DNA of 32,000 nucleotides from Cellvibrio chitinivorans. Its GTDB lineage: Bacteria; Pseudomonadota; Gammaproteobacteria; Pseudomonadales; Cellvibrionaceae. The stretch lies in assembly GCF_035117775.1 (NCBI RefSeq), contig NZ_JAYKKN010000008.1, forward strand, positions 37,749 through 69,748, in the 5' to 3' direction. Shown piece after piece: positions 3,035 to 19,136 of the stretch. Within the stretch, counting starts at the first letter, position 1. The number at the start of each line of letters is the position of its first letter. The notes beneath the pieces were generated by a model that ran no database searches, was not told the origin of the DNA, and saw only the letters and a program-made list of their open reading frames with translations. Made by a program: the position numbers and the translations under genes.

Positions 3035-5074
3035 ATGAAAACACTCCCCAAACTTTTGTTTGCTTGTTTGCTATCCCCGTTAGTTTCTATTCCTGTACAT
3101 GCACAAACGGCATTTGTGCATTTATTTGAATGGCAATGGAATGACATCGCATCCGAATGCGAAAATGTTCTAGCTCCGAAAGGTTACGCCGCGGTACAAG
3201 TATCGCCACCGCAAAAATCCGTGAGCGGAAATGCTTGGTGGACACGCTATCAACCTGTGAGTTATTCCATTGAAGGTCGCTCTGGTACACGCGCAGAATT
3301 TGCAAGTATGGTTGCGCGCTGTAAGGCCGTAGGTGTTGATATTTATGTCGATGCTGTTATCAATCACATGTCCGCAGGTAATCGTAACTTCCCTGAAGTG
3401 CCTTACGGCACAAATGATTTTCATAGCTGTACCAGCAATATTGATTACACCAATGCATGGCAAGTTCAAAATTGTGATTTGGTTGGATTAAATGATTTAA
3501 AAACCGAATCTGATTATGTACGCGGAAAAATCGCTGCTTATCTAAATGATTTATCCAGCATGGGCGTTGCGGGTTTTCGCTTCGATGCAGCCAAACATAT
3601 TCCCCACGGCGATATCGCCAACATTGTCAGTCGGTTAAATGGATCACCTTATATTTTTCAGGAAGTAATTGGCGCAGCTAATGAACCAATTACGCCGGCG
3701 CAATATACTTATATCGGCGACGTAACCGAATTTAATTTCACCAATACAATCGGGCATTACTTTAAAGGTCGCGCGCAATTAAAAGATTTGCGCAACATAG
3801 GCACCTGGAGTGGCTGGGTTCCGAGCAGCGATGCAGTTGTATTTGTCGCAAACCACGATAACCAACGTCAAAACACCGCCAATACAATCACGCATAAAGA
3901 TGGCATGAACGTTAATAACATTGCGCATGTATTTACACTGGCATTTCCCTACGGTTATCCAAAAGTAATGTCCAGTTATGACTGGAGCGATCACGACCAA
4001 GGCCCACCAAGCAGCGGCGCAAGCGCCTGTAATAACGGCTGGCTGTGTGAACATCGCAACCGTGAAATTGCCAATATGGTTGGCTTTCGCAACGCCACTA
4101 AAGACGCATTTTATTTATCCAATTGGTGGGACAACGGCGCAAACCAAATTGCATTTGGGCGCGGCAGCCTCGGCTTTGTTGTCATCAACGGTGAAAACAA
4201 CAGCATGAGCGTGACACTGCAAACCGGTTTGGCCGCAGGTAGCTATTGCAATGTGATTGCCGGTGATTTTGTTAACGGTAGTTGCACAGGCAGCAGTATT
4301 ACTGTTGCTGCTGATGGCACAGCAACATTTAATGTTGCAGCAAAAAGTGCAGCCGCTATTCACGTGCAAGCAAAAAACGGCACTGTAACAGGCAACAACT
4401 GTGTTTACTCTTCCATGAAAATGCGCGGCACTTTTAATAACTGGAGCAGTACTGATATGAATTGCGCCAGCGGTATTTGGGTTGGCAGCGCAACCTTTAG
4501 CGGGAGCAGCACGGATCGTTTTAAGTTCGATGCCTACGGCAACTGGGTTAATAACTGGGGCAACAACAACAGCGATTTAATTGCAGATGCGGGTGGTAAT
4601 GATATTGCTGTAACAACCGCAGGCACCTACAACATCACTTTTAATGATGCGAGCTTGCAATATTCAATTACACCAACCACTGCCAGTAGCTCTGCTCCAT
4701 CGAGCACAGCAAGTAGCGCCTCATCATTCACAGCAAGCAGTGCAAATAACTCAAGCGCAGCATCCAGCTCTGTATCGGCGAACGTTAGTGTTAACTTCAC
4801 CTGCCAAAACGGTATAACCTATAACGGACAAAGTGTTTATGTCACAGGCAATCACGCAACACTCGGCAACTGGGCTCCAGCTTCTGCGATAAAACTTTCA
4901 CCCACGAGCTATCCGACCTGGACAGGCACAATTCAGTTACCCGCGAACACTGCAATTGAATGGAAATGTGTGAAGCGCGAAGAAAATAATGCAGCGGCAG
5001 GTGTGGTATGGGAAAGTGGCAGCAATAATTCTCTGAACACCGCAACTGCAACCACCACGCTGGGCGCATTCTAA
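3035..5074 (+). CDS. Secreted modular GH13 alpha-amylase: catalytic domain, an unassigned beta-sandwich module, a Ser-rich linker and a C-terminal CBM20-like starch-binding module
   Basis: The four GH13 regions are present: DAVINHM, GFRFDAAKHI, FQEVI, FVANHDNQR. The N-terminus FVHLFEWQWNDIASECE...GYAAVQVSPP closely resembles chloride-dependent animal-type and Pseudoalteromonas amylases. There is a signal peptide ending VHAQ. The C-terminus GQSVYVTGN..LGNW...WTGTIQLP...IEWKCVKRE is CBM20-like. Confidence 0.95.
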   Translation: MKTLPKLLFACLLSPLVSIPVHAQTAFVHLFEWQWNDIASECENVLAPKGYAAVQVSPPQKSVSGNAWWTRYQPVSYSIEGRSGTRAEFASMVARCKAVGVDIYVDAVINHMSAGNRNFPEVPYGTNDFHSCTSNIDYTNAWQVQNCDLVGLNDLKTESDYVRGKIAAYLNDLSSMGVAGFRFDAAKHIPHGDIANIVSRLNGSPYIFQEVIGAANEPITPAQYTYIGDVTEFNFTNTIGHYFKGRAQLKDLRNIGTWSGWVPSSDAVVFVANHDNQRQNTANTITHKDGMNVNNIAHVFTLAFPYGYPKVMSSYDWSDHDQGPPSSGASACNNGWLCEHRNREIANMVGFRNATKDAFYLSNWWDNGANQIAFGRGSLGFVVINGENNSMSVTLQTGLAAGSYCNVIAGDFVNGSCTGSSITVAADGTATFNVAAKSAAAIHVQAKNGTVTGNNCVYSSMKMRGTFNNWSSTDMNCASGIWVGSATFSGSSTDRFKFDAYGNWVNNWGNNNSDLIADAGGNDIAVTTAGTYNITFNDASLQYSITPTTASSSAPSSTASSASSFTASSANNSSAASSSVSANVSVNFTCQNGITYNGQSVYVTGNHATLGNWAPASAIKLSPTSYPTWTGTIQLPANTAIEWKCVKREENNAAAGVVWESGSNNSLNTATATTTLGAF

Positions 5075-11687: not shown

Positions 11688-12038
11688 TTAACTGCGCAGA
11701 ATTTTTTCCATCGCCTTGCCTTTAGCAAGCTCATCAATCAGTTTGTCTAAATAACGGATTTTCTGCATAAGCGGGTCGTCAACCTCCTCCACCCGCACAC
11801 CGCAGACAACACCTTTTATCAGTGCAGCATTGGCGTTAAATGTCGGTGCTTGCGCAAAAAACTCTTCAAATGTTTTCTCCTGCACAATCTGCTCTTGCAA
11901 ACCCGCATGATCGTAACCCGTCAACCAACAAATAATTTGATCAACCTCATCCTGAGTGCGATTTTTCCGCTCAGCCTTATTCACATAAAGCGGATAGACT
12001 TTGCTAAAAGCAGTGGTGAAGATTTTGTGATTGGTCAT
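11688..12038 (-). CDS. DUF2200 domain protein
   Basis: The 116-aa protein reads [34 protein letters not shown] ... [37 protein letters not shown]. This matches the DUF2200 family as I recall it. Confidence 0.8.
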
Positions 12039-12278: not shown

Positions 12279-13016
12279 CTACAAATCTATACTCAGGCTT
12301 TCTAGTGAAACAACACGACTCATTAAAACTTTTTGCTCAACAACAGAAATATTACCAAGTGCAGCGTGAATGAAATTTATTATATTTGGAATATCGGCAT
12401 CTGACTTTACAAAAATATAACGTATGTCACCTGGCCCAAATTTAATCGTACAATTTTCTTTAGTTAAAGAGTTCTCAATATCCAAATTGTCTTTATTTTC
12501 AAACTTTGACTTTCTTATATATGGCTTAATTTCCTCATGTTGTGGAACATAGCGCCATTCAGATTCTTGATAAAATTCTTTTTCTACAGGAACCCCATCG
12601 ATAACCATTTTCCCACTAGTTGGTTTTGTGTATGCAAGCAAATACCTCATGGTTGTCTTGCATAACTCGATATCTTCACCCTCTAATTTGTTGGAGTGAT
12701 CATTTAGGCCTCTAAACGAATTTGTTAGATTGTTATTTCCTGCGCTATAGAGAATTGGATTCAAACCATTCAGATGACCCCACTGCCTAGTAAGACCTAA
12801 TCCAAACTCACCGTAAAACCCTATATGCTCAGAAATTCTTGATAGCGGAATGTCACAAAAGCAAACCATTGGGTACGCAATATAGTCGAACTTATCGTAT
12901 CCGAGCCAGCTTATGTCTTCTAAACAATAACGAGGCCAAAAGCCATGTTCCAAGATTAATTTCAGAGTTTCTATGTTCTTGGTAAAATGAAAAAGCGTAT
13001 TTGATTTCGGTCGCAT
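12279..13016 (-). CDS. AbiGi-like (abortive-infection family) protein on a low-GC islet, with no AbiGii partner
   Basis: The N-terminus NTLFHFTKNIETLKLILEHGFWPRYCLED and the strings YPMVCFCDIPLSRISEHIGFYGEFGLGLTRQWGHLNGLNPILY match my recollection of the AbiGi (PF10899) pattern. I prefer the ATG at 13016 (GAGGAAATT-ATG) to the track's 13058, which has no Shine-Dalgarno sequence. Two 60-nt samples I counted were 32-33% G+C. Confidence 0.65.
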   Translation of the reverse strand: MRPKSNTLFHFTKNIETLKLILEHGFWPRYCLEDISWLGYDKFDYIAYPMVCFCDIPLSRISEHIGFYGEFGLGLTRQWGHLNGLNPILYSAGNNNLTNSFRGLNDHSNKLEGEDIELCKTTMRYLLAYTKPTSGKMVIDGVPVEKEFYQESEWRYVPQHEEIKPYIRKSKFENKDNLDIENSLTKENCTIKFGPGDIRYIFVKSDADIPNIINFIHAALGNISVVEQKVLMSRVVSLESLSIDL

Positions 13017-13292
13017 AATTTCCTCAAATGTCCTAACTCCGAAGCAGTTTTTCTGCATCCATATTATTTATTTGTTATGAGCTTTTGTAAGCACGGAATT
13101 TTTTAAGTGTTAACCTTGATATTTCCAATGTTCTCCCTCCAATAGCCCTTCAGCTTGTTGATGTTCGCAAGCTCAGCCTGCAAGGCCCGCCGCAACCTAC
13201 GGGTACATTAGCTACGAAAATTCAATTAAAGACTATGAATGAATTTACCGCCAGCCGGAATTACAGGTTATTACCTTGCGATATTTGAGTGG

Positions 13293-13344: not shown

Positions 13345-14724
13345 TTACACTAGGTTTATAAGTGTTTTAACTGATTGCTGTACATCGGCGGTGAGTTTTT
13401 CTATGTCGATTGTGTGTACTTGATTGTTGCTGACAACTGGTTTGCCGTTGATAAAACTGTGCTTGATGGTTACGGGTTCGCCGCAGATTAGCGGTGCTTC
13501 CAGTGGGCTGTGCACTCCGGCGAAACGAGGTTGTTGTAAATCGTAAATAACTAAATCGGCGGCGTAGCCGACCGCTAATTTTCCGAGGTTTTGCAAACCT
13601 AAAATTTGTGCGCCGCTATGACTGCCCCAGTTAATTACCATTTCAACATTGGTTGCCGCAGGGCCATGCTGGCTGCGGTGTAATAGCCACGCGAGATTTA
13701 ATTCCTGCAGCATTGATGCTGATTCTGAAGATGCAGAACCATCGACGCCGATACTAATCGGTACGCCCGCTTGTTGCATGGCAATCACAGGGGCTATGCC
13801 GCTGCCCAAACGGCAATTGGATGTGGGGCAATGGGCGATGCCGGTTTTGGTTTGCGCGAGTAGATCGATTGCATGTGCATCGCTTTTTACCAAGTGCGCA
13901 AACCAAACATCGCTGCCGAGCCAATGACAACTCGCGGCATAATCGATTGCACTCATGCCGTATTTGGTTTGCGCTTGTTGCTCATCAAATTCCACTTCCA
14001 ATAAATGCGAGTGCATTTTCAAACCCTGTGCGCGCGCATATTCAGCGAGCGCGATTAAATCATTGCGGCTTGCTGAGTGAATCAAACTGGTGGGCGCAAC
14101 AACCAATTGGCGCATGGGTACAACGCCATATTGGAGTGAATAATTTGTTTGGTGATACTTACTGCGGCTCTGCTCCAAGCGCGCAATGACCTGCTCCACT
14201 GTTTCAGGTTCGATGCCGCTATCGCGCAAGCCGCGATGGGTGCCGCGCTCGGTGGCGCTGCCCCGACACAATACCAAACGAATTCCCAATTCATCTGCCG
14301 CTTGCCAAAGCGCCGCTTCCACTTCGGGCGATGAGGTCGCGTGATATAAATAATGATGATCTGCGCAAGTAGTTGCGCCCGAGCGCAAGAGTTCATACAA
14401 ACCGAGGCGCGCGGCGTGATACATCAGTTCCGGTGTGATTTTTGGCCAAAACTTATAAGGCACAGAGGCAAGCCAATCGCCCAAGCCCTGATTTAATCCG
14501 GCAGGCACACCTTTTAAAATTGATTGCGCTAAATGGTGATGAGTATTCACCAACCCCGGATAAATGCTACAACCACTGGCATCAATCAGCGTTTCATTTT
14601 GCTGCGGGATAAGCTGCTGGCCGAGCTCAGTAATTACACCATTGCTGATGCGAATGTCGCTGGCTGCCGGATGAGATTGGCTAAAAATTGCGCGGGCATT
14701 TTTAATTAAATAATTCATCTTCAC
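13345..14724 (-). CDS. Amidohydrolase-superfamily deaminase (COG0402), 8-oxoguanine deaminase / chlorohydrolase-like
   Basis: The metal-binding string PGLVNTHHHLAQSILKG sits near the N-terminus, followed by HSHLLE, HCPTSNCRLGSG and GVDGSAS. The overall pattern is close to P. aeruginosa 8-oxoguanine deaminase as I recall it (LPGLVNTHHHFYQTLTR). Confidence 0.8.
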   Translation of the reverse strand: MKMNYLIKNARAIFSQSHPAASDIRISNGVITELGQQLIPQQNETLIDASGCSIYPGLVNTHHHLAQSILKGVPAGLNQGLGDWLASVPYKFWPKITPELMYHAARLGLYELLRSGATTCADHHYLYHATSSPEVEAALWQAADELGIRLVLCRGSATERGTHRGLRDSGIEPETVEQVIARLEQSRSKYHQTNYSLQYGVVPMRQLVVAPTSLIHSASRNDLIALAEYARAQGLKMHSHLLEVEFDEQQAQTKYGMSAIDYAASCHWLGSDVWFAHLVKSDAHAIDLLAQTKTGIAHCPTSNCRLGSGIAPVIAMQQAGVPISIGVDGSASSESASMLQELNLAWLLHRSQHGPAATNVEMVINWGSHSGAQILGLQNLGKLAVGYAADLVIYDLQQPRFAGVHSPLEAPLICGEPVTIKHSFINGKPVVSNNQVHTIDIEKLTADVQQSVKTLINLV

Positions 14725-14764
14725 TCCTGAGTTAAAGGGCGGGAATGTTTCCCGCCGATTTCAA

Positions 14765-14801
14765 GAGCAATGTCCCGAGTTAACTCTGACCGCTTCTACT
14801 C
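14765..14801 (-). promoter_or_regulatory. Candidate riboswitch aptamer copy A (NMT1-motif / xanthine-class candidate) in the amidohydrolase leader
   Basis: The minus-strand sequence is GAGTAGAAGCGGTCAGAGTTAACTCGGGACATTGCTC. It shares its 5' and 3' boxes with copies B and C. It is followed by the hairpin GGCGGGAA-ACA-TTCCCGCC, then AGGAG and the ATG. Confidence 0.6.
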
Positions 14802-15088
14802 TTACTACCTTTATTAATAACATTGAATTTTGCTTACGCCAAGACAATAACAGCATGAGAAAAATAAAATACAATTTGGTGCAAAGCAGAATTTTAAGCG
14901 TATTTTTTTGGTGCAAGAGCAATAAAAAATCTGGCTTTAGGGAAGCAGATATAAATAGAAAATTTATTAAAAACTTCTTATCGCATCTATAGTTAGCCTT
15001 AGCTACGCCATCAGTTTCCGCGGCTGGCATAAGGTTTGCTAAAACTTAAACGAACCCGATATTTTTTGATTTTTGAATATCGGGTATT

Positions 15089-15139
15089 GAGTAGAAGCTG
15101 TTAGGTAACTCTCTTTTACGAGAAACCGGGACATTGCTC
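15089..15139 (+). promoter_or_regulatory. Candidate riboswitch aptamer copy B in the leader of the ABC operon
   Basis: The sequence is GAGTAGAAGCTGTTAGGTAACTCTCTTTTACGAGAAACCGGGACATTGCTC. Its first 10 nt and last 12 nt are identical to copy A. The inner helix changes GAG/CTC to GGT/ACC, which is compensatory. Confidence 0.6.
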
Positions 15140-15305
15140 ATTGTTCATACGTCGCAGCCTTGTGGGCTTATAGCAACGTGTGGCGATGAGATAAGCTTCT
15201 CCCCCGCCACTACCCCTCTGCTATAAAACTCCACTTCAAGCTTCGACCTTACAACATTGATTTTGCGCAGGCATTGCTCTGCGCATCTGTGTAATGGAGA
15301 AAGCG

Positions 15306-16340
15306 ATGAAATTTTCCACCCGGTTTTTCACTCTACTCAGCTTATTTAGCTGTTGTTTTTATGCACACACCAGTTACGCACTCGATAAAGTGGCCTTTCA
15401 ATTGGACTGGCTACCCGGTGGCGATAAAGCCCCTGTGTATGTCGGTGTAGAGCGCGGATTTTTTGCAGCAGAAGGATTGGAAGTCAACATCGCCCAAGGG
15501 CGCGGTTCCAATGATGCCATCAGTAAATTAGCCACCGGCAATGGCGATGTCGGCCTGAGCGATTTGGTTGCGCTCTTGCTCGCCAAAGCGGGGCAAACCG
15601 TTCCGGTCAGTGCCATCTACTCACAATTTAGCAAAGCACCTTACGCATTTTATGTGCTGGATTCATCGCCCGTAAAAACCGTTGCCGATGTAGCCGGTAA
15701 AAAAATTGCAACCTCCGCATTTACCTCCGCCAATATATTTTTGCCACTGCTGTTATCGACAAATGGAGTTGATCAAAACTCGATTCAATTAATTAAAGCC
15801 GACCCTGGTGCGCTCAACCCTATGTTGATTATGGGTAGAACTGATGTAGAGATTTCATGGATCACCGACAGCGTGCGCAATATTCAGCAAGCCAAAAAAG
15901 CGGGGAAAAATTTGCGCATCATTCCCTGGCACGATGCAGGTCTGGAGTTTTATTCAACCTCAGTCATCGCCAGTGATAAATTTTTAAACGAACGCCCCGA
16001 TGTTGCACGCCGCTTTTTACGCGCATACGCCAAAGCTGTTGCCTACACATGGGAACATCCGCTGGAATCTGCACAAGCCGTACACAAGATGGTGCCAGAA
16101 GTAGATGCTACTGAAGCAGAAGCAACCATAAATTCCATTCGCGATTTGGTGGTGAATGAGGTTAGCGCACGCGATGGTTTGGGAGTATTTGAGCCAACAC
16201 GCCTGGCAACCACTTGGGAATGGACAGCCAAAGGGCAGCAATTAGCAGTGGATAGTTTTAACCCGGAAACAGCAATTAAGCGTGATTTTCTAGCGGCGCC
16301 TCGCAGCGAGATTGCCACTGCGGAGGCATCTGCACAATGA
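15306..16340 (+). CDS. ABC transporter substrate-binding protein, NMT1/THI5-like (NitT/TauT family)
   Basis: There is a signal peptide, then FQLDWLPGGDKAPVYVGVERGFFAAEGLEV, typical of NMT1/THI5-like binding proteins. I prefer the ATG at 15306 (GGAGAAAGCG-ATG) to 15294. The stop overlaps the next gene's start (ATGA). Confidence 0.85.
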   Translation: MKFSTRFFTLLSLFSCCFYAHTSYALDKVAFQLDWLPGGDKAPVYVGVERGFFAAEGLEVNIAQGRGSNDAISKLATGNGDVGLSDLVALLLAKAGQTVPVSAIYSQFSKAPYAFYVLDSSPVKTVADVAGKKIATSAFTSANIFLPLLLSTNGVDQNSIQLIKADPGALNPMLIMGRTDVEISWITDSVRNIQQAKKAGKNLRIIPWHDAGLEFYSTSVIASDKFLNERPDVARRFLRAYAKAVAYTWEHPLESAQAVHKMVPEVDATEAEATINSIRDLVVNEVSARDGLGVFEPTRLATTWEWTAKGQQLAVDSFNPETAIKRDFLAAPRSEIATAEASAQ

Positions 16341-17164
16341 AACCTTTTGTCAGTTTTAATCAGGTAGGCCACCGCTATCCACTCGCACAGGGCGGTCACA
16401 TGCAAGCCTTAACCGAGGTCAGTTTCGATATTCATCGGCATGAATTTGTCGCCGTCGTCGGTCCATCCGGTTGTGGTAAATCTACATTGCTGCGTTTACT
16501 CAGCGGACTATTAAGCCCGAGCGAAGGCAAGGTTGAGGTTTTTAATCAGCAAGTGACGCAACCGCGCGACGATGTAGGCATAGTGTTTCAAAAACCAACA
16601 CTGCTGCCGTGGAAATCGGTACTCGATAATGTTCTTTTTCCGCTGCACCACAAATACGGAAAAGTTACCGACAAAGATCGCGCCTACGCCAAACAATTAA
16701 TCAATACTGTTGGCCTGAACGATTTTATTGATCGCCTGCCCGATCAACTTTCTGGCGGTATGCAACAGCGAGTGGGAATTGCGCGCGCACTGTTATTAGA
16801 CCCGGACATTTTAATTATGGATGAACCTTTTTCAGCGCTGGATGCATTAACCCGCGAAGAAATGGGTTTTGAATTACTGCGCATTTGGGAAGAAAAACCC
16901 AAAACCGTTTTATTTATCACTCACTCCATTTCGGAAGCGGTTTTGCTCGCCGATAAGGTATTGGTAATGAGCGCTCGCCCCGGACGCCTGCTGGAACAGA
17001 TTGCTATTGAGCTGCCGCGCCCGCGCAGTTTGGACACAATGCAGATACCCGCTTTTAGCAACTACACCCGCCGTATACGCGCACATATTTACGGGAATAA
17101 TTCCCAGTCACAAACTCAATCACAGCCTCAAGCGGACAAAAGATCGCAAACTCTCGCCGTCTAA
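16337..17164 (+). CDS. ABC transporter ATP-binding protein (NitT/TauT family)
   Basis: Walker A GPSGCGKST, signature LSGGMQQR and Walker B ILIMDEPFSALD are all present. Confidence 0.95.
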   Translation: MKPFVSFNQVGHRYPLAQGGHMQALTEVSFDIHRHEFVAVVGPSGCGKSTLLRLLSGLLSPSEGKVEVFNQQVTQPRDDVGIVFQKPTLLPWKSVLDNVLFPLHHKYGKVTDKDRAYAKQLINTVGLNDFIDRLPDQLSGGMQQRVGIARALLLDPDILIMDEPFSALDALTREEMGFELLRIWEEKPKTVLFITHSISEAVLLADKVLVMSARPGRLLEQIAIELPRPRSLDTMQIPAFSNYTRRIRAHIYGNNSQSQTQSQPQADKRSQTLAV

Positions 17165-17188
17165 CGCTCGCATAATTACCGATTAAAT

Positions 17189-17986
17189 ATGAGAAGCCCA
17201 ATGAAAATACTCTGCTCCCAGTATTTAACGCAACTACAGAAGTTATTGCCCTTGATGGCATTGCTCGCACTGATTCCCTTATGGCAATTGTGTTGTTGGT
17301 TATTTTCGATTCCCGAATTTATTTTGCCATCGCCCAGCACTATCGCTCACGCATTTTTTGAGGTGGACGCAGTGCGTTGGTTGGAACATGCATGGGCCAC
17401 CTTAAAAATTGCTCTCATTGGTTTTGCGCTATCGATAATGTTAAGTATTCCCTTGGCGATAATGATGGTGCGCTCTGCTTTTTTGACGAAGACCTTGTTT
17501 CCGCTATTAATTATTGTGCAGTCCACACCGGTGGTTGCGATTGCACCATTGTTAATTGTAATTCTGGGTGCAGGCGATGCCCCGCGTTTGGCAATTACGT
17601 GTTTAATTACCTTCTTTCCACTTGTGGTTTCTGCCACCACGGGTATGTTGGCTACACCACCAGAATTAATTGAACTTTCCAAATCCCTGCGCGCATCACC
17701 GGTAAAAGAAATTTGGCAGATTCGCCTGCCCTATGCCATCCCACATATTTTTAGCGGACTAAAAGTTGCCATTACCTTAGCGGTAATCGGTGCAGTGATA
17801 GCGGAGTTTGTCGCGGCCGAACAGGGGCTTGGATATTTTGTGCAATTCTCCACGTCGTTTTTTAAAGTGCCGCAAGCCTTTGCCGCTTTGCTTTTATTAT
17901 CGGCGATCAGTCTTTCGCTTTTTGCGCTTGTGCAATGGACCCAAAAAATCTGGTTTGCCTGGAGCTTACCGCGCGACAAAATGTAA
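17189..17986 (+). CDS. ABC transporter permease (NitT/TauT family)
   Basis: The 265-aa protein has about 6 hydrophobic segments and an EAA-like loop (ELSKSLRASPVKEIWQIRLPYAIPHIFSGLK). Confidence 0.85.
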   Translation: MRSPMKILCSQYLTQLQKLLPLMALLALIPLWQLCCWLFSIPEFILPSPSTIAHAFFEVDAVRWLEHAWATLKIALIGFALSIMLSIPLAIMMVRSAFLTKTLFPLLIIVQSTPVVAIAPLLIVILGAGDAPRLAITCLITFFPLVVSATTGMLATPPELIELSKSLRASPVKEIWQIRLPYAIPHIFSGLKVAITLAVIGAVIAEFVAAEQGLGYFVQFSTSFFKVPQAFAALLLLSAISLSLFALVQWTQKIWFAWSLPRDKM

Positions 17987-18014
17987 CTTTACATAGCAAC
18001 CCCAAAAAACCGCG

Positions 18015-18072
18015 GAGTAGAAGCGGCGATTGGAAAATACCGGCATTCGCTATTTTCCGATTGGCATTGCTC
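18015..18072 (+). promoter_or_regulatory. Candidate riboswitch aptamer copy C, intercistronic between the permease and oxygenase genes
   Basis: The sequence is GAGTAGAAGCGG-CGATTGGAAAATA-ccggcattcgc-TATTTTCCGATTG-GCATTGCTC. The same outer boxes enclose a 13-bp helix that includes 2 G.U pairs. It is followed by a short GC hairpin (GCAGC-AGC-GCTGC) plus TTTATTTAT, then GGAG and the ATG at 18114. Confidence 0.55.
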
Positions 18073-18113
18073 CATTTCCAGCAGCAGCGCTGCTTTATTT
18101 ATGGAGTTTTACA

Positions 18114-19136
18114 ATGAGCAATATCAATACAAACACCAACACTACAAGTCCGTACGATTTACAAGAGTTGCAATTTGAAAGCACACTTGGTGGCATGGGC
18201 ATTGAAAATGATGCATTACAAATTCCACTGATTGACCTCAGCAACTTCAGTGAGCGACGAGCCGAAATCACCGAACAGTTATGGGCAGCAGCAACCCAAG
18301 TGGGATTTTTTCAGTTGCAACATCATGGGTTGGATTTGACTTTGATTGAATCCACCTTTGCTCAAGCAAAAGCATTTTTTGAATTGCCCAATGCGGATAA
18401 AAAAGCCTATCCCCTTAAAGAGGGTTTGAATGCAGGCTGGGAATTTATGGAGCAGGTTCGTCCATCAACTGGCACTGCCGATCAAAAAGAATCCTATCAA
18501 GTCACCTTGCCGCACATGGACAACTTATGGCCGCAAGAATTGCCCATGTTTCACTCCATCATTCTCGAATTTGAAAAACGTGCGTGGCAATTGGGCATGG
18601 ATGTGCTCTCCTGCTTTGCCGATAAGCTTGGATTTGAGCGCGACTTTTTTAGCCGTGTACACAAACGAGAATCAGCACAGTACCAAAGCACACTACGCTT
18701 ACTGCATTATTTGCCAATGAAAGATTCGCTGCATCAGGAAGGAATTTGGCGTGCTGGCGCCCATACCGATTTTGATTGCCTGACAATGGTATTTCAAAAA
18801 GACGGTCAAGGTGGCTTACAAGTCTGCGGCGGAAAAACGGCCACAGAACAACAGGCATGGAGCAATGTCATTCCGCGCACAGATATCATCACCTGCAATA
18901 TTGGCGACATGCTCATGCGCTGGAGTGACGATCAATTAAAATCCACTCTGCATCGCGTGCGTATGCCTCAAGCTCATGAATATCAAGGCCCGCGCTACAG
19001 CCTCGCATTTTTTTGTCAGGCCAATAAAGATGTAATTATTCAAGGCCCGCAAAAAAAATACGAACCCATCTCTGCTGCCGACTTTTTACGCAAGCGTATT
19101 AACGCGAATTTTGCCGAAATACAGGAAAAAAAATAA
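18114..19136 (+). CDS. 2-oxoglutarate/Fe(II)-dependent oxygenase (isopenicillin-N-synthase-like family)
   Basis: The facial triad and 2OG site are present: GAHTDFDCLT (HxD), LKSTLHRV (distal His) and RYSLAFF (RxS). An N-terminal DIOX_N-like string is IPLIDLS. The track's 18030 start is a TTG; I prefer the ATG at 18114, which is preceded by GGAG. Confidence 0.85.
   Translation: MSNINTNTNTTSPYDLQELQFESTLGGMGIENDALQIPLIDLSNFSERRAEITEQLWAAATQVGFFQLQHHGLDLTLIESTFAQAKAFFELPNADKKAYPLKEGLNAGWEFMEQVRPSTGTADQKESYQVTLPHMDNLWPQELPMFHSIILEFEKRAWQLGMDVLSCFADKLGFERDFFSRVHKRESAQYQSTLRLLHYLPMKDSLHQEGIWRAGAHTDFDCLTMVFQKDGQGGLQVCGGKTATEQQAWSNVIPRTDIITCNIGDMLMRWSDDQLKSTLHRVRMPQAHEYQGPRYSLAFFCQANKDVIIQGPQKKYEPISAADFLRKRINANFAEIQEKK

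Follow-up and report, generated by a model that had tools for sequence, protein, structure and literature searches.

We analysed a window of 32,000 nucleotides (nt) of Cellvibrio chitinivorans DNA (assembly GCF_035117775.1, contig NZ_JAYKKN010000008.1, positions 37,749 to 69,748 of the forward strand), in which an amidohydrolase gene and an ATP-binding cassette (ABC) transporter operon are transcribed divergently. The leader of each contains a small structured RNA element. These two elements, copies A and B, are almost certainly xanthine-I riboswitch aptamers (NMT1 motif, Rfam family RF03054), and it is very probable that they combine membership of this class with a cis-regulatory role. The class is already described and structurally solved, and is not new. 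We assign both copies to it because of their Rfam matches, their essential nucleotides and their covariation; the conservation, structure and leader position of the element support its interpretation as a riboswitch. A third, variant copy (C) stands inside the operon, between the permease and dioxygenase genes.

Identification and anatomy of the aptamers

The whole window was compared with 4227 Rfam families using cmscan. Only two matches reached gathering level, both to RF03054 (gathering score 36 bits) and both spanning the full model: copy A at 14806-14760 on the minus strand (55.6 bits, E 5.6e-10) and copy B at 15084-15144 on the plus strand (41.5 bits, E 4.8e-06). A permissive Rfam search of 14700-15320 returned nothing besides these two aptamers, and the purine riboswitch family RF00167 gave no match in the same region (E up to 5), nor at gathering level window-wide. 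A first-pass annotation, made from the letters of the sequence, had described two copies of one element, the reverse complement of 14765-14801 (37 nt) and 15089-15139 (51 nt), and had named NMT1/xanthine riboswitches as candidates to be checked with a covariance model. Both copies are found as quoted, each oriented toward its own gene, and RF03054 matches both on the predicted strands above its gathering score. Their first 10 nt are identical, as are their last 12, in fact 13. The gene context that it invoked, an NMT1-type transporter and a dioxygenase, agrees with the published associations of the class, which are PRK12393, NMT1/tauA and DIOX_N (PMC7373994).

Nucleotide roles were mapped onto copy A from the numbering of the Ideonella crystal structure (PMC8266621). 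P1 is formed by AGAGUA/UGCUCU (14797-14802 with 14764-14769), J1 by G7 A8 A9 G10 C11 G12 (GAAGCG, 14791-14796) and P2a by G13 U14 C15 with G36 A37 C38 (14788-14790 with 14772-14774). A16 is bulged, P2b is GAG/CUC with a UUAA loop, and J2 consists of G34 (14776) and G35 (14775), the junction being completed by A39 and U40. In copy B, J1 reads GAAGCU (U12), P2a reads GUU/GAC and G35 is at 15129; GG stands ahead of P2a in both copies, making pairing with C11 possible. The ligand is contacted in the published structure by G10, U40, a Mg2+ ion and the C11-G35-A39 triple (PMC8266621), and mutations of A8 (A12 in the 68 tauA construct) or G35 (G38 there) abolish binding (PMC7373994, PMC8266621). All nucleotides that contact the ligand or Mg2+ in this structure occur in A and B. 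The essential set (A6-U41, G7, A8, A9, G10, C11, G35, A39, U40) is intact in both, and G7 A8 A9 G10 C11, A39 U40, A6-U41 and U5.G42 are unchanged in all three copies.

This mapping redraws part of the secondary structure that had been proposed for the element. The first five pairs of the suggested P1, GAGUAG/UUGCUC, stand (P1 = xGAGUA/UGCUCx), but the sixth, G.U, does not form, these two nucleotides (G10 and U40) being the ones that hold the ligand. The internal loop exists as well, not as AAGC(G/U)G opposite CA but as GAAGC(G/U) opposite AU: the G and C that had been placed in it are G13-C38, the first pair of a 3-bp P2a, replaced by U13-A38 in the beta-proteobacterial members from Ideonella and Hydrogenophaga. 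Similarly, the bulge drawn as an A opposite GG above a 2-bp lower helix is real and corresponds to J2, but its second G (G35) pairs with C11, and P2a has 3 bp.

To assess conservation, we used relatives of the locus retrieved with the amidohydrolase as query, which are gamma-proteobacteria. Species-representative genomes provided Vibrio (56-66% identity, the best of them 64-66% at the amino-acid level), Catenovulum, an Alteromonadaceae metagenome-assembled genome (MAG) and Acinetobacter, and metagenomes provided closer relatives (92, 91 and 79% identity). The amidohydrolase-leader copy is present in 20 of 20 related loci and the transporter-leader copy in 19 of 20. Counterparts in loci L059, L060 and L067 and in the Vibrio and Acinetobacter loci match RF03054 above gathering, the matches preceding the amidohydrolase gene and, divergently, the transporter operon. 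The compensatory helix changes that had been noticed between A and B extend to an alignment of 18 aptamers, whose covariation score was reached by none of 500 column shuffles. Standard pairs fill 94.7% of the pair cells of this alignment, against 29-50% when the partners are slid, and double-sided changes occur in 7 of the 14 pairs (6 of 8 in P2, 1 of 6 in P1). Class match, covariation and conservation thus bear out the view that the element is a ligand-binding RNA and not a protein operator, the binding itself being predicted by homology. For A and B, selective and Mg2+-dependent binding of xanthine, uric acid and 8-azaxanthine is predicted from the conserved pocket nucleotides; published members of the class bind with micromolar affinity (Yu and Breaker 2020, PMC7373994; Xu et al. 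2021, PMC8266621). R1, a covariance model that we built from related aptamer sequences, detected three copies per locus in the closer metagenomic loci and in each of the eleven genomes from Vibrio, Catenovulum and Alteromonadaceae, the layout being shared by four closer metagenomic lineages. Acinetobacter loci L012-L014 and L016 are organized differently: a single xanthine riboswitch (about 3165-3217, plus strand) heads a co-directional operon in the order binding protein, ATPase, permease, amidohydrolase, that is, the same genes as here in one transcription unit.

Copy C had been overlooked when two copies were counted. It starts 27 nt past the permease stop codon and has the layout GGAGUAGAAGCGG-C-(12-13 bp helix)-G-GCAUUGCUCC. 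Constrained folds keep P1, J1, A39 and U40 intact, shorten P2a to 2 bp (G13-C38, C14-G37) and reduce J2 to a single G or UG adjoining the 2-bp P2a. A counterpart lies at the same position, ahead of the dioxygenase gene, in 18 of 20 related loci. The short form also occurs in L008-L011, L059, L060 and L067, each time below the Rfam threshold, whereas the Vibrio copy C is full-length, carries U16 and U34 and passes it. Over distant lineages J1 (GAAGC), A39, U40 and P1 of copy C are invariant and P2b covaries, which argues for function.

Leader architecture and direction of control

Aptamers A and B would each form the 5' region of a separate mRNA, and ligand binding would stabilise P1 and so alter the access of the ribosome to the Shine-Dalgarno (SD) sequence. 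Control is probably exerted at translation initiation; the class is reported to use sequestration of the ribosome site, almost entirely without terminators (PMC7373994). In leader A the 3' strand of P1, extended by 3 nt, is complementary to the SD region (Table 1). All 8 pairs of this anti-SD/SD helix are kept in the RNAalifold consensus of the 4 closest lineages, and the duplex is computed at -11.9 kcal/mol, compared to -7.0 for shuffled sequences. A hairpin is inserted between the two strands; relatives have one there too, differing in sequence through compensatory changes. Leader C is built alike: the anti-SD strand CUCCAU (18070-18075, 4 nt within P1) pairs with AUGGAG (18101-18106) ahead of the AUG at 18114-18116, and a hairpin AGCAGC-AGC-GCUGCU (18080-18094) lies between the strands. 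Of the 5 core P1 nucleotides, the best duplex covers 3-5, together with the whole GGAG, in 15/15 C leaders and in the 4/4 A leaders of the window's clade. The flank of the C leaders covaries from A-U to U-A: Vibrio has CUCCAAU/AUUGGAG, L011 has CUCCAUU/AAUGGAG and the window has CUCCAU/AUGGAG.

P1 and the helix that blocks the SD share nucleotides in leaders A and C and would therefore be mutually exclusive, so that a ligand-stabilised P1 should release the SD and turn translation ON. We consider this direction for A and C to be evenly poised. In leader C an alternative 5' helix, CCGC with GCGG, would trap the J1 nucleotides G10-G13 without ligand; in L067 it reads CUGC/GCAG, changed on both sides, a single event and a weak signal. 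In a thermodynamic test, only the 5-bp core of P1 was forced, since flanking pairs bias toward ON. Forcing it lowers the computed cost of opening the SD-to-AUG region in 15/15 C leaders and 11/15 B leaders.

Leader B has another architecture. Its 9-bp helix begins directly after P1 and covers half of the SD GGAG (15296-15299); it adjoins P1 instead of overlapping it, and both can coexist. The 9 pairs are kept over 5 sequences, 3 window-specific changes all preserving wobble pairing, and the leader folds with z = -4.97. An insert of about 140 nt (15150-15287) separates the two strands of this helix. It is structured, shows some compensatory changes and is conserved in four lineages; the permissive search of 14700-15320 gave no Rfam match for it, so that it is not a known family. 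Near the end of the leader, a CATTGCTC box identical to the aptamer 3' box (15272-15279, plus strand) lies in the loop of a hairpin GCGCAG..CTGCGC, 27 nt ahead of the start codon. We considered this second box as a decoy P1 strand and dropped the idea, as only TTGC is conserved in relatives. We also set aside a long-range contact seen in the minimum free energy (MFE) fold, between GAGAAACCGGG and the coding-region segment CCCGGUUUUUC, which depends on a palindromic CCGG in an Arg codon.

Several results weigh against the ON direction. Yu and Breaker (PMC7373994) called the class OFF, a Hydrogenophaga intermedia leader fused to lacZ being expressed in E. coli below a one-nucleotide aptamer mutant, in an assay in which the ligand was not varied. 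This assay conflicts with ON for A and C. Our thermodynamic model leans ON for the H. intermedia construct too, by +2.1 kcal/mol; it is therefore not validated by the sole available measurement. Forcing the core P1 gave mixed results in A leaders, and Vibrio A-type leaders were mixed in the duplex test also. Finally, because the CUC(C)/GGAG core partly follows from the family-wide P1, only the flanking pairs count as independent evidence.

The main rival is accordingly that all copies belong to the same class and act OFF, xanthine and urate (deamination and oxidation products) stabilising the aptamer and lowering translation. It is a serious contender, to which we give slightly less than even weight. 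Repression could be steric, or could result from P1 stacking coaxially on an SD-blocking helix next to it. The lower expression of the wild-type leader than of the aptamer-dead mutant in the published reporter speaks for it, as does leader B, whose blocking helix is adjacent to P1 and could coexist and stack with it. In several relatives (L010, L011) the SD is merely 5-10 nt from P1, which fits steric occlusion, and in a subset of Vibrio A-type leaders the cost of opening the SD rises when P1 is forced. In leaders A and C, however, the 3' strand of P1 itself blocks the SD, which is incompatible with a ligand-locked P1. The published assay moreover concerns one construct from a distant species, with one mutant and a constant ligand, and this construct lacks the complementarity found here (P1-strand/SD duplex of -7.2 kcal/mol, compared to -9.3 for shuffled sequences). 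Comparison of the legend of supplementary Fig. S1 with the OFF assignment in the main text indicates that the direction of regulation is not uniform even within the source paper (PMC7373994). Our literature searches retrieved no follow-up work on in vivo regulation by the xanthine-I class.

We judge it unlikely that any of the copies has lost its function or shifted to a different ligand; B and above all C would be the candidates. Copy B carries U12 and an internal AA/AA mismatch in P2b (GGU-AA-CUC / GAG-AA-ACC) that relatives do not share. Copy C scores 25.3 bits with RF03054 and 22 bits with R1, misses the Rfam threshold here and in eight related lineages, and has about one similar sequence in the published alignment file; with its shortened P2a and J2, its ligand could differ. 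The amidohydrolase-leader copies of L008 (5924-5983, Catenovulum) and L009 (5906-5982, the Alteromonadaceae MAG), both on the plus strand, have an A at the G35 position (..AAGACAUUGCUC and ..GAGACAUUGCUC) and score below the Rfam threshold; they may be decayed or may be variants of altered specificity, binding being lost in G35 mutants (PMC8266621). Against drift, G12 is poorly conserved in the class and G12A costs only 7-fold in affinity (PMC8266621), and U12 is a common natural variant: the U12 form GAAGCUGU is found 36 times in the published alignment file (649 representatives), and U12 recurs in L059, L060, L061 and L067. The invariant J1, A39, U40 and P1 of copy C, together with its covarying P2b, argue for selection, and with P2a and J2 both shortened, the C11-G35 contact may stay within reach.

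Termination in the leaders, intrinsic or Rho-dependent, is an improbable substitute for control at translation initiation. The hairpin GGCGGGAA..UUCCCGCC of leader A is followed by the U-rich CUUUAAC and the hairpin AGCAGC..GCUGCU of leader C by the U-rich UUUAUUUAU, rare terminator-like stems are mentioned in the supplement of Yu and Breaker (PMC7373994), and sites for Rho loading could be exposed in leader B, whose 166 nt are untranslated. The U runs are, however, short and unconserved (GUUAAC in L060, UUAACCUAU in L067), and a terminator scan of the leaders gave no credible intrinsic terminator. The class is reported to do almost entirely without them, and the position of copy C, 27 nt past the permease stop, fits translational control of the downstream cistron. 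That the boxes are instead a DNA inverted repeat, for instance an operator pair through which a transcription factor acts on both divergent promoters, would suit copies A and B, inverted and 288 bp apart in a divergent promoter region, but has very little probability, since each copy faces its own gene and is preceded by its likely promoter, the inner helix changes sequence while its pairing stays, a third copy sits within the operon far from any divergent promoter, and a structure-aware model scores A and B above its curated threshold.

Promoters and genes of the locus

A sigma-54-type promoter motif lies upstream of aptamer B (Table 1). It fits the sigma-54 consensus, with GG and GC 12 nt apart, is the sole match in the 32 kb (0.25 expected by chance) and is invariant in the alignment with close relatives. 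The motif (TGGCAY-N5-TTGCW) is present between both aptamers, directed toward the transporter operon, in 15 of 17 related loci (L001, L004-L011, L059, L060, L062, L064, L065, L067); in Vibrio it stands just 14 nt ahead of the aptamer match. Such a promoter would suggest that the transporter operon depends on an activator; nitrogen limitation is a plausible signal and would be in keeping with substrate induction and a catabolic role. Two TTGGTGCA direct repeats, 32 bp apart and 110-150 bp upstream of the promoter, are conserved in L059, L060 and L067. They presumably resemble an activator half-site, and may be the binding site of the activator of this promoter; no activator gene was found in the window. 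The amidohydrolase mRNA has a putative sigma-70-like promoter whose hexamers were read by eye. This block is conserved in the window, L059 and L060, is not listed by the promoter scan, and would start the transcript a few nucleotides 5' of P1, near 14807. Immediately 5' of aptamer B we also observed a perfect 10-bp palindrome, ACCCGATATT-N12-AATATCGGGT (15054-15086, plus strand). It is absent from L059, L060 and L067 and hence specific to the genome of the window, and transcripts from the sigma-54 promoter, predicted to start near 15052, would carry it at their very 5' end.

On a more speculative reading, to which we give less than even weight, all three leaders, and A and C in any case, would be translational ON switches, opposite to the published sense, they would form with the activator-dependent promoter an AND gate on purine uptake, oxidation and deamination, and the ligand preference of copy C might be shifted. 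If this is true, expression would require the activating signal of the promoter, possibly nitrogen limitation, and the presence of an oxidised purine.

Table 1. Positions of the aptamers, leader helices, promoter elements and genes within the window
Feature	Position	Strand	Description	Basis
Aptamer A	14764-14802	-	in leader of amidohydrolase gene	RF03054, sequence, mapping from PMC8266621
Aptamer B	15088-15140	+	in leader of ABC-transporter operon	RF03054 (41.5 bits)
Aptamer C (variant)	18014-18073	+	between permease and dioxygenase genes	RF03054 sub-threshold, R1, positional conservation
Leader A, predicted anti-SD strand	14761-14768	-	GCUCUUGA (P1 3' strand + 3 nt), pairs with UCAGGAGU at 14723-14730	MFE fold, RNAalifold
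Leader A, predicted insert hairpin	14738-14756	-	GGCGGGAA-ACA-UUCCCGCC, between anti-SD strand and SD	MFE, RNAalifold
Leader A, ribosome site	14716-14730	-	SD GGAG 14724-14727, AUG 14716-14718	sequence
Leader B, predicted platform helix	15141-15297	+	15141-15149 (UUGUUCAUA) with 15288-15297 (UGUGUAAUGG)	RNAalifold, 5 sequences
Leader C, predicted platform	18070-18116	+		RNAalifold
Leader C, candidate alternative 5' helix	18010-18026	+	CCGC (18010-18013) with GCGG (18023-18026)	RNAalifold
Sigma-54-type promoter	15025-15040	+	TGGCAT-N5-TTGCT (TGGCATAAGGTTTGCT), 48 nt upstream of aptamer B	motif scan, alignment
Direct repeats	14876-14883, 14908-14915	+	TTGGTGCA	repeat search, alignment
Sigma-70-like promoter	14814-14842	-	amidohydrolase mRNA; TTGGCG 14837-14842, 17-nt spacer, TATTAA 14814-14819	hexamers read by eye
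Amidohydrolase	13345-14718	-	PRK12393 type, isoxanthopterin/8-oxoguanine deaminase family, 457 amino acids	NF009059, Pfam Amidohydro_1
Four-gene operon	15306-19136	+		Pfam, NCBIfam, solved-structure searches
Solute-binding protein	15306-16340	+	NMT1 type	Pfam, NCBIfam
ABC ATPase	16337-17164	+		Pfam, NCBIfam
Permease	17189-17986	+		Pfam, NCBIfam
Dioxygenase	18114-19136	+	DIOX_N/2OG-Fe(II)	Pfam, NCBIfam

The amidohydrolase scores 623 bits with NF009059 (cut-off 543), and its start matches residue 1 of its homologues in the alignment. Among solved structures it comes nearest to 2paj (E 1e-111), whose deposited name is putative cytosine/guanine deaminase and which we take to be the structure of an isoxanthopterin deaminase; 8-oxoguanine deaminases come next. 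The dioxygenase is nearest to thymine dioxygenase among solved structures, and the binding protein to an uncharacterised ABC binding protein and to THI5/ThiY-type proteins. We place the start of the latter gene at 15306 rather than at 15294, the first in-frame ATG, on the sequence criteria that the SD GGAG (15296-15299) lies 7 nt ahead of 15306 and that relatives lack the upstream AUG. An open reading frame of 89 codons on the minus strand (14761-15030), overlapping aptamer A, was rejected as a gene: it has no Pfam match and lies in a region rich in insertions and deletions among relatives. Directly downstream of the amidohydrolase gene is an AbiGi-family gene (12279-13058, minus strand), the antitoxin-like part of an abortive-infection system, and a DUF2200 gene is found at 11688-12038; both are apparently unrelated to the purine cluster. 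The window is otherwise ordinary chromosomal DNA of a polysaccharide-degrading gamma-proteobacterium, with genes for an amylase, GH10, GH67, CE2, Pol II and minCD.

Significance and comparison with known riboswitches

Two, in effect three, xanthine riboswitches link a vaguely annotated five-gene cluster to the metabolism of oxidised purines. The labels concerned are 'NMT1/THI5-like' for the binding protein, 'taurine-type' for the ABC transporter, 'morphine-synthesis-like' for the dioxygenase and 'chlorohydrolase-like' for the amidohydrolase. From Vibrio to Alteromonadales the layout of three riboswitches, with a sensor for every translation unit, is conserved, and copy C is a shortened variant that standard Rfam annotation overlooks. 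The use of the P1 3' strand as an anti-SD strand, together with an upstream sigma-54 promoter, fits substrate induction at least as well as OFF control. The first-pass annotation was right on the riboswitch class; it overlooked copy C, the sigma-54-type promoter and the complementarity between the P1 3' strand and the SD in leaders A and C. A divergent arrangement is already known from H. intermedia, and neither copy C nor the sigma-54 coupling nor the ON-type anatomy places the finding in a new category.

With the xanthine-I class copies A and B share the fold (P1, J1 GAAGCG, P2a, the J2 bulge and a variable P2b), the ligand-contacting nucleotides, a gamma-proteobacterial host and the gene associations. 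Relative to the Serratia plymuthica 53 tauA aptamer, which has been tested biochemically, copy A is changed only in P2b and the flanks. Copy B departs from the class by its U12 and mismatched P2b, and copy C by its 2-bp P2a, reduced J2 and sub-threshold score. The predicted blocking of the SD by the P1 3' strand in leaders A and C would give ON control, whereas the class is described as OFF. The closest published arrangement is that of H. intermedia S1 (PMC7373994, Fig. 5A inset), where a divergent pair of xanthine riboswitches likewise faces purine-related genes. Its motif is of the beta-proteobacterial type (U13-A38, J2 CCG), unlike the copies here, no third copy is reported for it, and its leader is without the strong complementarity between P1 strand and SD present here.

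Xanthine-II and 8-oxoguanine riboswitches, which are guanine-riboswitch variants (RF00167), also sense oxidised purines and control genes of purine degradation and transport, but they have an unrelated fold, a three-way junction with a loop-loop contact (PMC9295807).

The adenine riboswitch of the Vibrio vulnificus add gene is a translational ON switch whose P1 3' strand is at the same time the anti-SD strand. Leaders A and C are predicted to follow the same logic, with an aptamer of a different class and a different ligand.

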